DNA of 64,000 nucleotides from an uncultured Cloacibacterium sp. (GTDB taxonomy: Bacteria > Bacteroidota > Bacteroidia > Flavobacteriales > Weeksellaceae). The position numbers were made by a program, and so were the translations under genes. The notes beneath the pieces were generated by a model. It did no database searches. It worked only from the letters and a program-made list of their open reading frames with translations, and was not told where the DNA came from. Location of the stretch: assembly GCA_964530915.1 (NCBI GenBank), contig CAZHCK010000001.1:4012-68011 (forward strand), read 5' to 3'. How positions within the stretch are numbered: the stretch's first letter is position 1; every line of letters begins with the position of its first letter. Positions 16,428 through 20,978 of the stretch are shown piece after piece.

Positions 16428-17423
16428 TTATTCTTCATAATTTTTATATGCAATTCTAAGTTTATGCATTATTCTCTTCCTTAACTTAGTAGGTTGAATA
16501 ATTTTAATAGATTCTCCAAAGCCTAATATCACTCTTTCTAATTCAAAATTAATTTGAACAGAGATTTTAAAAACCGTTCCATCTTCTAATTCTTCAATTA
16601 TTTCTTGAGTATGATGAAAAGGTTTTGTTTTTACATATGGAGCATTATTTTTATCAATCCAAAAAATCACATTCATGGGTCTATTCCTTTGAGAAACAGT
16701 AACACCAATTACTTCCTTAAAAAAATGGTCTCCATCAATATTTTTATCGATATACTCTGCATTAATTTTCTCAATACTAATAACTCTATCTAAAGCTAAA
16801 GTAAGATAAGTCATTTCCTCCCATGCAATTAAAAACCATCTGTTATTATATTCTTTCAAAAGTTGAGGATGAATGATATAGTAATTTGTTTCTCTAGCTT
16901 TAAAAGATTTATATTCGATTTTTAAAACATTTTTATTGAGGATAGCATCGTATAAAGTGTCTATAAATTCCAAGCCTTTTAATCTCTCATTTTTGTCTAA
17001 ATGAATAATGGCTTTTTGTTTTGAAGCATAAACAGAATCTTCTAATTTTTGAATTATGCCATTCATTTCCTTAAAAATAGAAAAATCTTTAAATTGTTTT
17101 AAAATTTGTACCGCATCATTCATTACTTTAATATCATTCTCATTTACTGGAATATTCTTAATGCTAAAATCAGGCTCAGAATACTTATAAAATTTTTTTT
17201 GAAAAACTTCAATAGGTGCATTATAACCCAGCTTTTCGCTGCGCATATTCTGAATATCTAACTGAACTGTTCTTTTACTCACTAAATCGTATTTCCCCTC
17301 GTATTCATACAAAGCATCAGAACAAGCGTCTATTAAATCTTCTAAAGTCCAGAGTTTAGTTCTATTTCTTAAGCAATTATCAATGGTTTTATAACGAATT
17401 AAAGCGTTTTTGTTTGAGGACAT
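16428..17423 (-). CDS. WYL-domain transcriptional regulator (HTH-WYL-WCX, PafC-like)
   Basis: MSSNKNALIRYKTIDNCL N-terminus, SKRTVQLDIQNMR HTH, HPQLLKEYNNRWFL, LALDRV, ILGFGESIKIIQP. The start is probably the internal ATG. Confidence 0.92.
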   Translation of the reverse strand: MSSNKNALIRYKTIDNCLRNRTKLWTLEDLIDACSDALYEYEGKYDLVSKRTVQLDIQNMRSEKLGYNAPIEVFQKKFYKYSEPDFSIKNIPVNENDIKVMNDAVQILKQFKDFSIFKEMNGIIQKLEDSVYASKQKAIIHLDKNERLKGLEFIDTLYDAILNKNVLKIEYKSFKARETNYYIIHPQLLKEYNNRWFLIAWEEMTYLTLALDRVISIEKINAEYIDKNIDGDHFFKEVIGVTVSQRNRPMNVIFWIDKNNAPYVKTKPFHHTQEIIEELEDGTVFKISVQINFELERVILGFGESIKIIQPTKLRKRIMHKLRIAYKNYEE

Positions 17424-17460
17424 CTTAAAAATTTTAATAAAATTAAAAAATATTTTCAAC

Positions 17461-17480
17461 TACGCAAATAGAATGCGCAA
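17461..17480. promoter_or_regulatory. Candidate WYL operator (inverted repeat) between the divergent WYL and rtcB genes
   Basis: taCGCAaatagaaTGCGcaa; the only GC-containing palindrome in a 95-bp AT-rich gap. Confidence 0.45.
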
Positions 17481-17518
17481 TTGTGTTTTTACTTTGCATC
17501 ATCAAATTAGAAAAGCAA

Positions 17519-18895
17519 ATGAAAATTACAGGACAATATTTAATTGATTTAGGTTACAGACCAGCAAAATGGTTTTCTGAAGCACTGCAATATATTAATG
17601 ATAAAGATTTATCCGAAGTTGAAATTTCTGAATATTTAGAGCAGTTTCAATTACCAGAACCTATTCCTCTTAAAGAAACACCAGCCGAATTCATTATCAA
17701 TATAAAAGCAGAAAATGATGACGAAATAGAAAATGTAGGAAAAGTAATAGAAACAATGTCTGAAATGCTGAAAACTCCTACCATGATTGGCGGAGCTTTA
17801 ATGCCAGATGCTTGTCCTACCGGTGAAAAAGGAATTATTCCTGTAGGTGGGGTTGCAATTGCTAAAAATGCGATTCATCCAGGAATGCACAGTGCAGATA
17901 TTTGTTGTTCTGTAATGTTGACAGATTTTGGAAAAATAGATCCAAAATTAGTTTTAGATGCAGGACATAAACACACTCATTTTGGTATAGGAGGAAGAGC
18001 AAGAGGAAATCAATTTTCTATGCCTATGGAATTGGTAGAAGAATTTAGAAATAATACTTTTTTAAATGACGAAAAATTAATCAGTACCGCAAGAGAACAT
18101 CTAGGAACTCAAGGTGATGGCAACCATTTTATGTTTGTAGGAATTTCTAAAAATACTGGAAATACAATGCTTATTACTCATCACGGTTCTAGAGCACCTG
18201 GAGCATTTTTGTACGACAAAGGAATGAAGACTGCTGAAAGATTTAGAAGAGAGCTATCACCAGAAACTTTGAAAGTAAACGCATGGATTCCTTTCGAAAC
18301 AGAAGAAGGACAAAGTTATTGGGAAGCACTCCAAATTATTAGAAAATGGACAAAATGCAACCACGAAACTATTCATGAAGCCGTTTTAAAAGAATTAGAA
18401 ATCGAAAAAAAAGATAGATTTTGGAATGAACACAACTTTGTATTCAGAGATGGTGATTTATTTTACCATGCTAAAGGCGCAACTCCGTTAGACGAAAAAT
18501 TTTTGCCGGATATTACAGGTCCAAGATTAATACCTCTGAATATGGCAGAACCTGTATTGATTGTTTCTGGAGCGACTAACGACAGAAATTTAGGATTTGC
18601 GCCTCATGGAGCAGGGAGAAATTTCAGCAGAAGTGCCCATAAAAGAACTTTGGAGCATAAAACAAATGAAGAAGTTTTTGCTGAAGAAACCAAAGGTTTA
18701 GACGTAAGATTTTTCTCCAATGAAATTGACATTTCTGAATTACCAAGTGCTTACAAAAATGCACAGAATGTAAGGAAACAAATGGAAGAATTTGGCTTGG
18801 GAGAAGTCATTGATGAAGTTTTACCTTATGGCTGTATCATGGCAGGAGATTGGAAGAAAAATGCACCTTGGAAAAAGAAGAAAATTAGAAAATAA
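17519..18895 (+). CDS. rtcB: RtcB family RNA ligase with N-terminal extension
   Basis: [50 protein letters not shown] match the RtcB catalytic motifs. Start at the ATG of MKITGQ. Confidence 0.9.
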
Positions 18896-18924
18896 AATTT
18901 TTTAAAAAAATTAAGATTAATATT

Positions 18925-19024
18925 GGCGCAGTAGCTCAGATGGTAGAGCAACGAATCACTTTTCGCTTTTGGCAAAAAAAGTTCCTAAATAAGTGTGTCA
19001 CAGGTTCGAGTCCTGTCTGCGTCT
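18925..19024 (+). ncRNA. tRNA-like (YrlA/Y-RNA-like) ncRNA with intact acceptor, D and T arms and a 49-nt replacement of the anticodon/variable region
   Basis: Acceptor GGCGCAG/CUGCGUC, U8A9, D arm GCUC-AGAUGGUA-GAGC, T arm ACAGG-UUCGAGU-CCUGU. No 5-bp stem with 7-nt anticodon loop. No encoded CCA. Confidence 0.8.
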
Positions 19025-19028
19025 TTTT

Positions 19029-19204
19029 AAACTGATAAAAAAGTTCCTATATTTGTAACTGTTAAATACTATACTTTTCATCAGTTTAAAAAATAAATAA
19101 AGGCAAAAGGAGTTCCTATTTGACTTTCCACATTTACTCCCCGCTTTTTTATAAATATAGGTAAAAGGAGTTCCTATACATTTTAAAATTTACTCCTCAC
19201 TTAT
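19029..19204 (+). ncRNA. Three tandem stem-loops sharing an (A/G)(A/G)AGU-UCCUA...ACU(U/C)(U/C) motif
   Basis: Hairpins 19029-19087, 19099-19148, 19157-19204; GTTCCTA at 19043, 19112, 19170 (and 18981 in the tRNA-like RNA); outer stems differ in sequence but still pair. Confidence 0.72.
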
Positions 19205-19220
19205 TTTAAATATTTAAACA

Positions 19221-20978
19221 ATGAAAACATTAAAATTATTTTATACAGTTCTCGCAAAAGAATCCGGTGAAAAACCTTTTATTTCTGATGATGGTTTTGT
19301 AATTGACTCAAATGCAATCTGGGCAAAAAAAGAAATCATAAAGTACTTTTCTAAAGAAAAATTAAGCGGAAAAGATCTAAACGCTACCTTTCATAAATCT
19401 TGGAAAACCATAAAATACAGCACTAGAAACCAATTGTTTGTTGAGCAAGTTTTGCATTATATTTCTACATATGGAAGTAATTTTCAAGATGAAATTTATA
19501 TTCCAAATGAAATTTTGAATATTCCTGATGCAAAGCTTTCTTTCAAAGTAATCAAAGGTATTTCTAAAGAAGAAATGATTGAAAAATGCTTGAATTTACT
19601 GAATTCAGGAATCGCACTACAAGAAGAAACAATAGATGATGTATTTTCAATTTTAATAGACGAACTTGATTATAAATTCACTGGAAACGAGAACATTAAG
19701 AATAAGGAAGCCATTGCAAAAATTGCAGATTTATTCCATATCTATCCTGAAAATCCAGTAGAATTTTTCAGATATATCATTTATAAAAGTGCGCAAACTA
19801 CTTTATTAATTAAAAATGATGAAGTGATTTCGGCAATAAAAGAAAGCAAATTCAATCCTTCTCAAGCATTTAAAGATTTTGGATTAGAAAAAATGGCTGA
19901 AATTTTCAACCGATTCAAACCACTTTTTTTGGCTTTCAAAAATAAATGTCCAAAAACCATTAATGCGATTTCAAAATTATCAAAAAAACATCATAAACCT
20001 TTGGTTTCTAATCCATTGAACGATGCTACCAATCAAATTCTTACCGAAAATGATTTGCATTGGTTAGAAAACGCAACTCCATTTGCTTTGTTCAAGGCTT
20101 TATCTGCTTGTTATAATAGAATGAACGGTCAAGATACATTTGCCTACAGAATTAGAAACGGAAAATCTTGGGTACAAAAAGATGTGGTGAAAAATGTAAA
20201 TAAAAAAAATTACGATTTTATTCTACAATTTCTAAAATCTAAATTCGATTTTACAAATCTGAAAATTTACATTCCAGAAGAGGTGAAATATGCATTGCCT
20301 ACTTCCGAAAAAATGTTTGTAGGAAATATCCCAACAGGAAGCAGATTTTATGGCAAAAAATTAGCAATTGGTATTTATTGGGAAGATTCTTGGGGAGCAC
20401 ATGATTTGGATTTATCGGGTCTAAATATTGGTGGGAAAATTGGCTGGAATTCATCCTACAAGCAAGATGAAGGAAACTTAATGTATTCTGGTGATATGAC
20501 TTCGGCTCCAAATGGTGCAGTAGAATATTTGTATGCAAATAAAGGTTTGAACTACCCGACTTTAATTTTAAATAGTATTTACAGTGGAGATTCAAACTGT
20601 GATTACAAAATTATTGTAGGTAAAGGCGAAAAAATTTCTAAAGAATATATGATGAATCCTAATGCAGTTTTTGCTGAAATAAAATGCAAATCCGTGCAAA
20701 GACAAACCGTTCTTGGAATGCTTTTGCCAAAAAACGACAAACAATGTTTTGTTTTGTTGAATTTCGGAGCAGGACAATCCCGAGTTTCTGGAACCAGCAA
20801 ACTTTCTACTTTGGCTACCACTGCTTTGTATCAACAGTGGAACAGACCTCTCACTTTTAATAAATTAGTAAGTGAATTGGGAGCTCATTTGGTTTACTAT
20901 AAAGATGGAGTAGATTATGATTTTTCTTTAGAAAATTTAGAAAAAGATAGTTTTATAAAGCTGTTCCAAAGAAACTAA
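19221..20978 (+). CDS. Large hypothetical protein: helical N-terminal region plus C-terminal TerD-like domain (possible Ro/TROVE-related protein)
   Basis: N-terminal NATFHKSW...EQVLHYISTYG; C-terminal IGIYW...HDLDLS and YSGDMTSAP..AVEY resemble TerD-family motifs. The TROVE relationship is inference. Confidence 0.7.
   Translation: MKTLKLFYTVLAKESGEKPFISDDGFVIDSNAIWAKKEIIKYFSKEKLSGKDLNATFHKSWKTIKYSTRNQLFVEQVLHYISTYGSNFQDEIYIPNEILNIPDAKLSFKVIKGISKEEMIEKCLNLLNSGIALQEETIDDVFSILIDELDYKFTGNENIKNKEAIAKIADLFHIYPENPVEFFRYIIYKSAQTTLLIKNDEVISAIKESKFNPSQAFKDFGLEKMAEIFNRFKPLFLAFKNKCPKTINAISKLSKKHHKPLVSNPLNDATNQILTENDLHWLENATPFALFKALSACYNRMNGQDTFAYRIRNGKSWVQKDVVKNVNKKNYDFILQFLKSKFDFTNLKIYIPEEVKYALPTSEKMFVGNIPTGSRFYGKKLAIGIYWEDSWGAHDLDLSGLNIGGKIGWNSSYKQDEGNLMYSGDMTSAPNGAVEYLYANKGLNYPTLILNSIYSGDSNCDYKIIVGKGEKISKEYMMNPNAVFAEIKCKSVQRQTVLGMLLPKNDKQCFVLLNFGAGQSRVSGTSKLSTLATTALYQQWNRPLTFNKLVSELGAHLVYYKDGVDYDFSLENLEKDSFIKLFQRN

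Follow-up and report, generated by a model that had tools for sequence, protein, structure and literature searches.

A candidate Ro60/Y-RNA-like ribonucleoprotein locus of Flavobacteriia and phages, built on the X585 protein and an RNA module shared by tRNA-like and hairpin RNAs

What is the role of a protein of 585 residues that is encoded, in a 64,000-nucleotide stretch of DNA from an uncultured Cloacibacterium sp. (contig CAZHCK010000001.1; the whole stretch is referred to here as the window), behind an RtcB-family RNA ligase, a tRNA-like RNA and three RNA hairpins? A preliminary description, made from the letters of the DNA, had read the locus as a WYL regulator divergent from a unit of rtcB, tRNA-like RNA, three hairpins and the 585-residue protein, which is designated here X585; open reading frame (ORF) listing, Pfam, ARAGORN and Rfam found all these parts at or near the positions first given (Table 1). 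The same description had seen no terminator within the unit and a bidirectional one at its end, and both points stand: no terminator-like site was found in the search of the rtcB-to-X585 interval on the plus strand, and the closing stem-loop is present. The answer proposed below is that X585 and its cognate RNAs rather probably form a ribonucleoprotein (RNP) dealing with tRNA or RNA damage, which would resemble the Ro60/Y RNA particle by analogy, being non-homologous to it and independently evolved.

The tRNA-like RNA and all three hairpins have one RNA module in common, present in the window as four direct copies of RRYAAAARRAGTTCCTA spaced 58–69 nt apart; this sharing was absent from the preliminary description. 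The 12-mer AARRAGTTCCTA occurs four times within 200 nt on one strand, the number expected in the whole window being 0.1, and the units are 74–93% alike over only 17–27 nt. Two extra matches to the 12-mer, at 33856 and 51685, were considered as further units and rejected, both lying inside coding regions and neither being a match of the covariance model. As read from the orthologous regions, strand A of the module consists, from its 5′ end, of P1 (about 5 nt), AAA, P2 (6 nt ending in GU) and UCCUAU, and strand B of U, P2′ (starting with AC), C and P1′, the helices P1 and P2 being separated by the AAA/C internal loop. In the hairpin units, strand A leads into strand B through a variable apical part of 8–60 nt, in which some units of marine flavobacteria contain a T-arm; the tRNA-like RNA runs from strand B through a loop of 3–5 nt to strand A, the tRNA body substituting for the apical part. 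The module in the tRNA-like RNA is, in other words, a circular permutation of the two-stranded hairpin motif. No family matching the module is present in Rfam 15. The preliminary description had spoken of a different protein binding a different set of small RNAs; the protein is indeed not Ro60 and the RNAs are distinct, the set being really one module in two topologies.

The module is real and is an RNA element. Over 96 distinct units, with strand B located by a positional anchor and complementarity left out of use, 96.7% of the pair cells are paired, as against 79.6% in shuffles, both sides have changed in 214 cells (63.5 in shuffles) and compensatory changes are found at nine of the 11 pairs, whereas sliding the partner strand as a control lowers pairing to 40–58%. 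Concerning the 78 phage and metagenome units that stood outside the model building, 95.9% of the cells are paired (72.3% in shuffles) and both sides have changed in 255 cells (74 in shuffles), in an alignment fitted to the model structure. Over both sets of units, compensatory changes retain pairing in 9–10 of the 11 module pairs.

The Rfam tRNA model gives the tRNA-like RNA of the window 43.9 bits (gathering score 29), with 40 nt at the anticodon loop where 13 are expected. RNAalifold, applied to 24 orthologs, recovered the acceptor, D and T arms together with the permuted P1 and P2, with the acceptor and T stems showing compensatory changes, and the Rfam model matches tRNA–module chimeras of 100–117 nt. 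A regular-expression search found 63 of the 81 loci to contain the element; a looser expression for permuted modules was too noisy, and no counts rest on it. ARAGORN detects only three of the 81 elements, calling them Lys, Arg and undetermined, and misses the other 78. A decoding tRNA-Lys, as ARAGORN would have it, was rejected for this RNA because the apparent anticodon varies between orthologs. The 7-nt loop and conserved anticodon of a bona fide tRNA are lacking in the window and Chryseobacterium versions, the marine versions being excepted. In four loci (loci carry L numbers here), the tRNA-like RNAs still have a canonical anticodon stem-loop with CAU, e.g. UUCGG-CUCAUAA-CCGGG (L076 5462–5575, L078 765–877, L052 5588–5700 and L071 5493–5605), and the X585 module is inserted intron-like at 26/27 or 29/30; no such loop exists in the window or in Chryseobacterium.

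The module accompanies X585 far beyond the window. Eighty flavobacterial genome loci were fetched with the use of a 12-sequence X585 alignment, most of them from different species of Chryseobacterium, the remaining genera including Kordia, Aquimarina, Algibacter and Winogradskyella; each of the 80 contains 2–5 copies of the motif on the X585 strand, within about 400 nt upstream of the gene, and neither a downstream rtcB (L039, L060, L071) nor the lack of rtcB changes this arrangement. Run on the 80 loci (1.05 Mb), the covariance model R1 placed 229 of its 230 matches less than 400 nt upstream of X585 on the same strand, and on the 64-kb window it matched the two canonical hairpin units only. 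In 48 other loci (654 kb) it gave 102 matches, all of them on the X585 strand and almost all beside the gene, which held for proteins of as little as 28% identity; in five further loci, among them the cyanophage S-CRM01 (g174), it gave 14, at least two per locus and adjoining the gene. The preliminary description had raised the possibility that homologous loci lack the RNA elements; these were found in all 80 genome loci, in the cultured cyanophage and, with two exceptions considered below, in the phage and metagenome loci that have a full-length X585 and usable flanks. It should be noted that the arrangement of the units is not fixed: their number ranges from 2 to 12 (11–12 in L082), they may stand just 3′ of the X585 stop codon (L081, L106, L117, L126 and S-CRM01), and in L083 they lie 2 kb from X585, in front of another gene. 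This variation in position argues for trans-acting RNAs. In S-CRM01, the annotated minus-strand ORF g173c (L133 6788–6934; NC_015569 132391–132537) overlaps a plus-strand hairpin unit (L133 6812–6875) and is probably not a gene.

The X585 family comprises 1360 clusters at 50% identity, conserved over the full length; of its members, about a quarter carry a source name, in all cases "hypothetical", and further homolog searches gave mostly flavobacterial proteins. No meaningful sequence match was obtained for X585 in Pfam (E ≤ 10), NCBIfam, PHROGs, PADLOC or the PDB (phmmer and profile). In particular, Pfam TROVE and vWA gave no match to X585 at E ≤ 10, and TROVE none among 59 family members at E ≤ 0.01; Pfam scans found TROVE, vWA and RtcR nowhere in the locus. 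The AlphaFold2 model of X585, based on a 50-sequence alignment, has a pLDDT of 90 and a pTM of 0.88. Compared as a whole with the PDB by Foldseek, it gave only low-probability β-sandwich noise, with no Ro60 chain in the top 50, and the N-terminal domain has neither a PDB fold match nor any likeness to TROVE/Ro60. The preliminary claim that the locus has no recognisable Ro60 was thus borne out by both sequence and structure searches.

The C-terminal domain, by contrast with the N-terminal one, has a TerD-like fold as judged from its model. When modelled alone (pLDDT 89), it found Klebsiella TerD 2KXT as the top PDB match (E 1.1e-4, probability 1.0; TM score 0.54 normalised to the target and 0.40 to the query); this match was seen in the PDB only with the domain modelled separately. 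In the BFVD, the whole protein gave full-length phage matches, among them Siphoviridae sp. ctFn287 "putative tellurium resistant like protein" (E 7e-20), Campylobacter virus IBB35 and Lactobacillus phage LpeD, as well as stand-alone TerD-like phage proteins (TerD-like protein, E 8.5e-5). The TerD-domain call of the preliminary description therefore stands at the level of fold and not at that of sequence, the Pfam TerD profile matching neither X585 at E ≤ 10 nor any of the 59 members. Over these members the N-terminal domain is basic (median pI 9.2) and the C-terminal domain acidic (4.85). The invariant residues are N161, E163, R184, N248, H258 and R312 in the former and D395, D397, G424, D425 and E435 in the latter, of which D395, D397, D425 and E435 are candidates for acidic Ca2+-binding motifs of the TerD kind.

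Concerning the neighbouring ligases, RtcB is encoded within 6 kb of X585 in 74 of the 80 flavobacterial loci, the gene order being shuffled among genera, and a WYL ortholog divergent from the unit occurs within 6 kb in 68. Two loci without RtcB, from Kordia (L016) and a member of the Flavobacteriaceae (L052), have a T4-type Rnl1 with Pnkp instead, accompanied in L052 by a Band_7 gene. The palindrome ACGCAA-N6-TTGCGY, found in the window in the gap between the WYL gene and rtcB, stands in other genera before rtcB, before the RNA array and before Rnl1+Pnkp; a single WYL regulon is proposed because the same palindrome precedes all three, and its distribution suggests that this regulon couples the RNP to whichever ligase is present. 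The window RtcB itself gives a full-length match to phrog_1075, "tRNA splicing ligase" (E 3.6e-91), and its metal-ligand and GMP-histidine motifs (D/C, GNHF, HxGSR, HGAGR) are intact when aligned with RtcB of P. horikoshii. The only ORFs of the unit are those of WYL, RtcB and X585, the RtcA cyclase and the RtcR regulator (CARF-AAA+ sigma-54) not being among them, in agreement with the preliminary statement that sigma-54/RtcR control is missing from the locus.

The surroundings in viruses are different. X585 is carried by 45 IMG/VR loci, several of them on contigs longer than 200 kb, and many phage loci have 10–32 tRNA genes within 8 kb of X585, arrays of tRNA genes being its commonest neighbours; others are a CCA-adding enzyme, Thg1, MYG1, a MetRS-like synthetase, an RNA ligase and homing endonucleases. 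Arrays of 14–24 tRNA genes lie beside the X585 locus in marine flavobacterial chromosomes, too. The co-occurrence of rtcB, WYL and the RNAs that the preliminary description foresaw holds in Flavobacteriia and fails in the viral loci with regard to RtcB and WYL; the invariant core is X585 with the RNA module, RtcB and WYL being outside it.

Several observations made in these surroundings may be recorded in their own right. Same-strand arrays of 6–24 tRNA genes, about one per amino acid, are present in L052 (2850–4861), L071 (19–1837), L076 (3003–4695) and L039 (10863–12004), such arrays being otherwise known from phages and mobile elements. An RNaseH_like (PF04308) gene is situated between the tRNA array and the operator with the tRNA-like RNA in two genera (L052 4933–5418, L076 4729–5214). 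A phage contig with at least 20 tRNA genes (L097) has a permuted tmRNA (RF04321, 80 bits) at 9777–10029, directly 3′ of the X585 stop codon. The Flavo-1 RNA (RF01705, function unknown) is found near repair genes at L052 11012–11087 (minus strand), where it is placed between the Band_7 gene and the operator preceding Rnl1, and at L039 13295–13422 (plus strand). A DUF434+DUF5616 protein downstream of rtcB (L071 10313–11020) and a DUF6331 protein following another operator-like copy of the palindrome (L039 12379–12705) may be further members of the regulon. Finally, in Chryseobacterium sp. CH21 (L050 4308–4943), the best rtcB match is a single segment of 212 residues with 64% identity, which may represent a disrupted gene or an assembly problem.

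Taken together, a function in tRNA or RNA damage is proposed because the neighbours of X585 are tRNA genes, enzymes of tRNA maturation and repair, and RNA ligases, and the particle is read as analogous and independently evolved because every test of homology—TROVE, vWA and the YrlA model—fails. In the mechanism envisaged, the N-terminal domain of X585 would recognise the RNA module, and the TerD-like domain might bind a metal or another ligand, or mediate assembly. The WYL regulator, acting at the palindrome, would control a single transcript running from rtcB through the tRNA-like RNA and the hairpins to X585, from which processing of the RNase P/Z type at the tRNA-like element could release the RNAs; hairpin unit 3, ending 16 nt before the start codon, would probably give X585 feedback on its own translation. 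Two modes of action may then be considered. The RNP could serve as a scaffold presenting cleaved tRNAs, or tRNA-handling enzymes, to the ligase, be it RtcB or Pnkp+Rnl1, or the tRNA-like and T-arm RNAs could compete with tRNA for anticodon nucleases; the same two mechanisms, a scaffold for repair and a tRNA-like competitor, have been discussed for YrlA (PMC7790460). Phages would carry the module inside their tRNA arrays in order to protect or service the tRNA pool.

Several points weigh against such an RNP. Binding of the RNAs by X585 is deduced from co-occurrence and covariation, part of the latter coming from the fitted alignment mentioned above, and co-transcription, processing and induction of the locus are likewise deduced. 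The N-terminal domain has no recognisable RNA-binding fold, and its invariant N, E, H and R residues could be catalytic. RtcB and WYL are encoded within 8 kb in none of the 45 viral loci, from which it follows that "repair" may be a flavobacterial specialisation. Two viral loci with a full-length X585 of 63–64% identity, L089 (gene at 7607–9364) and L090 (6430–8184), have no unit within the fetched flanks; their RNAs may lie elsewhere or have been lost. The position of the last unit before the start codon, moreover, fits simple cis-regulation in most loci.

The last point leads to the explanation that survives best beside the RNP, although it is in itself unlikely: the hairpins would be purely cis-regulatory, i.e. 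operators of X585 on its own mRNA, serving translational autoregulation in the manner of ribosomal-protein leaders without any role in trans. Initiation of translation in Bacteroidetes depends on an unstructured A/U-rich leader, in which a hairpin stabilised by a bound protein could repress initiation, and in the window, as in 76 of the 80 genome loci, the motif of the last and most conserved unit starts 50–63 nt before the X585 ATG. An array that may reach the dozen units of L082 is, however, more than feedback needs, units after the stop codon or 2 kb away are out of place for it, and feedback alone does not need a module fused into a tRNA-like body or the presence of T-arms. Autoregulation and the RNP can coexist.

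A quite unlikely alternative takes X585 for a structure-specific endoribonuclease, comparable to Cas6 or a splicing endonuclease, which would cut at the module and leave the rejoining to the ligase, the module of the tRNA-like RNA being an intron and the apical parts being released or circularised. It gains from the fact that the partners of X585 represent exactly the two end-healing and sealing chemistries of tRNA splicing (RtcB; Pnkp+Rnl1), from the membership of the window RtcB in the phage "tRNA splicing ligase" family, from the invariant N, E, H and R residues, and from L076, L078, L052 and L071, where, on a reading of the sequence, removal of the module would restore a normal tRNA with a CAU loop. 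The Chryseobacterium and window versions, on the other hand, keep no 7-nt anticodon loop after such a removal and their apparent anticodons differ by species; neither Pfam nor Foldseek revealed a nuclease fold or motif in X585, there are phage loci without a ligase nearby, and the tRNA arrays already include a tRNA-Met(CAU). In its fullest form, which we regard as decidedly improbable, this reading would make X585 the subunit that recognises and cuts the RNA in a protein-dependent excision–ligation system of bacteria and phages; the anticodon-arm module would be a tRNA intron of a new kind, with RtcB or Pnkp+Rnl1 as the sealing enzymes, its removal would restore tRNA(CAU) in marine flavobacteria, and the hairpins would yield free or circular small RNAs.

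There is still less to be said for a module of abortive infection resembling type III toxin–antitoxin systems, in which a toxic, RNA-targeting X585 would be restrained by the RNA repeats and RtcB would mend the collateral damage. The layout resembles that of toxIN, in which repeated RNA units immediately precede the protein gene, defence islands often contain WYL regulators (PMC4012209), and the one in the window is matched by PADLOC; the units are, however, diverged rather than near-identical tandem repeats, no terminator separates the array from the X585 gene, X585 has neither a PADLOC match nor a ToxN/AbiQ-like fold, and the placement in phage tRNA arrays, the conservation over 80 genome loci and the downstream units fit a toxin–antitoxin pair poorly, all of which makes this explanation very improbable. 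That the repeats work as DNA—as regulator sites, iterons or recombination sites, with the tRNA-like sequence a decayed tRNA gene—can practically be dismissed: they are direct, spaced by about 58 nt and adjoin a transcription-factor gene, but every copy lies on the X585 gene strand and the circularly permuted form retains the pairing, for which reasons a DNA-level repeat is excluded, and furthermore compensatory changes keep the RNA pairing, the separate palindrome is a better operator candidate and the compensatory changes in the tRNA-like arms indicate selection.

With regard to the RNP as the preferred reading, the X585 family and its RNA module are both unnamed in the databases consulted (Pfam, NCBIfam, PHROGs, PADLOC and Rfam 15), and their co-occurrence spans Chryseobacterium chromosomes, T4-like cyanophages and contigs of jumbo-phage size. 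Text searches of the literature turned up no description of an X585–RNA system; an earlier partial description, in the study of Burroughs and Aravind from 2016, is possible. Should X585 and its RNAs indeed form an RNP, they would represent a second, independent invention of the Ro60/Y RNA design, i.e. a protein with tRNA-mimicking RNAs and a link to an RNA ligase. They would thereby offer a new handle on the role of particles of this type, that of the Rsr/Y RNA particles being still unresolved (PMC7790460). The system may also account for a conserved unknown gene within phage tRNA arrays, would bring the TerD fold into its first RNA-linked context and would establish for Bacteroidota an RNA-damage regulon under WYL control. 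Direct tests are possible since cultured carriers exist, namely Chryseobacterium spp. and the Synechococcus phage S-CRM01 (g174).

The features of the locus are collected in Table 1. The divergent intergenic region between the WYL gene and rtcB measures 96 nt and the non-coding stretch between rtcB and X585 is 325 nt long; an N-terminal HTH of the WYL regulator is weakly indicated (NF001072, E 0.038).

Table 1 Features of the X585 locus in the window, with coordinates counted from its first letter
Feature	Position	Strand	Remarks
HTH-WYL-WCX transcription regulator	16428–17459	-	probable ATG 17423; Pfam WYL 1.2e-10, WCX 6.1e-12; PADLOC WYL models 2e-24
Candidate WYL operator, palindrome ACGCAAATAGAATGCGCA	17462–17479	.	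in the WYL/rtcB divergent intergenic region
RtcB-family 3′-P/5′-OH RNA ligase, phage type	probable ATG 17519, end 18895	+	ORF opens with GTG 17483; Pfam RtcB 3.3e-34
tRNA-like RNA with acceptor, D and T arms	18925–19024	+	anticodon loop replaced by permuted X585 module (~18958–18988)
Hairpin unit 1, containing the strands AAAAAGUUCCUAU / UACUUUUC	19024–19092	+	extended 18-bp outer stem; module motif 19033–19049; inverted repeat 94% complementary; fold z-score -5.9
Hairpin unit 2, canonical module	19099–19148	+	covariance model R1 42.0 bits, E 9e-10
Hairpin unit 3, most conserved, AUAGGUAAAAGGAGUUCCUAU...UACUCCUCACUUAU	19157–19204	+	R1 42.3 bits, E 7.4e-10
X585 (585-residue ORF)	19221–20978	+	ORF listing
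X585 N-terminal domain, residues 1–~345	19221–20255	+	mostly helical, basic, without known relative; proposed RNA-binding part
X585 C-terminal domain, residues ~346–585	20256–20978	+	TerD-like β-sandwich (model)
Bidirectional intrinsic terminator, common to convergent pnp	21070–21105 (stem-loop 21070–21095)	.	11-bp stem, T-run, A-run upstream

In the window, the unit is flanked by fhs and pnp. The convergent pnp was considered as a functional partner, in the sense of the Ro60–PNPase association, and rejected, since in the 80 related genomes the locus is nowhere adjoined by pnp or fhs. In the gap that separates pnp from the rpsO leader, at 23415–23934 on the minus strand, a ParE-family toxin (PF05016, 4.7e-8) and a 75-residue upstream partner are encoded, which are likely to be a type II toxin–antitoxin pair; the leader itself, at 24281–24327 on the same strand, is an ordinary S15-Flavobacteria ribosomal-protein leader (Rfam, 51.6 bits), by which the window can be assigned to Flavobacteriia.

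As far as the comparison with known systems is concerned, the X585 locus shares with toxIN the RNA repeats upstream of a presumed binding protein, but differs from it in the divergence and the structure of the repeats, in having an unrelated protein and in its genomic contexts. The regulator of the window has the WYL and WCX domains of HTH-WYL-WCX regulators of the PafBC/DriD/BrxR/CapW type. With TerD of the ter systems (resistance to tellurite, phages and colicins), X585 has in common the β-sandwich fold predicted for its C-terminal domain, in which acidic positions DxD...GD...E are conserved, whereas it gives no Pfam TerD sequence match, is fused to a novel N-terminal domain of 345 residues, is not part of a ter operon and occurs in a context centred on RNA. 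The Rtc operon (RtcR-RtcA-RtcB) has its RtcB, including the catalytic residues, represented here, while RtcA and RtcR are lacking. More generally, the ligases beside X585 belong to the families of both T4-type (Pnkp+Rnl1) and Rtc (RtcB) repair, although no dedicated RNP partner of the X585 kind is known from either of them. A further relationship concerns the SPFH/Band-7 RNA repair systems, which were reportedly described by Burroughs and Aravind in 2016 with a "novel tRNA-like molecule" that may or may not be identical with the X585 RNA; they are said to combine a predicted scaffold protein with a tRNA-like RNA and an RNA ligase, and a Band_7 gene is indeed present in L052, but there is none in the window or in most X585 loci.

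The closest counterpart is the Ro60/Rsr–Y RNA system, in which the non-coding RNAs are encoded beside the protein gene, contain tRNA-like modules and are found in rtcB operons (PMC4201824, PMC7790460); the comparison covered YrlA/YrlB and the rsr-yrlBA-rtcBA operons of Salmonella, Deinococcus, Mycobacterium and mycobacteriophages. X585 differs from Ro60/Rsr in having neither TROVE (a HEAT-repeat ring) nor vWA/MIDAS, a TerD-like C-terminal domain being predicted instead, in the WYL regulator taking the place of RtcR/sigma-54 control, in the absence of RtcA from the locus and in the embedding of its module in tRNA arrays in phages. The RNAs differ as well: Rfam YrlA gives 15.8 bits on the window RNA (E 1.5, gathering score 69), and the 5′ and 3′ ends of the X585 tRNA-like RNA are at the acceptor stem and not in the protein-binding helix. 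What the two systems share is, first, a protein of about 550–600 residues encoded beside several cognate non-coding RNAs, which X585 would bind, composed of a helical N-terminal part followed by a C-terminal domain of metal-binding type, putatively so in X585; second, RNAs each made up of a conserved protein-binding helix and a variable or tRNA-like part with D and T arms, the module that X585 is presumed to bind standing at the position of the anticodon arm; and third, the link to rtcB and the occurrence in both bacteria and phages. In design, the X585 system is read as analogous to the Ro60/Y RNA particle.

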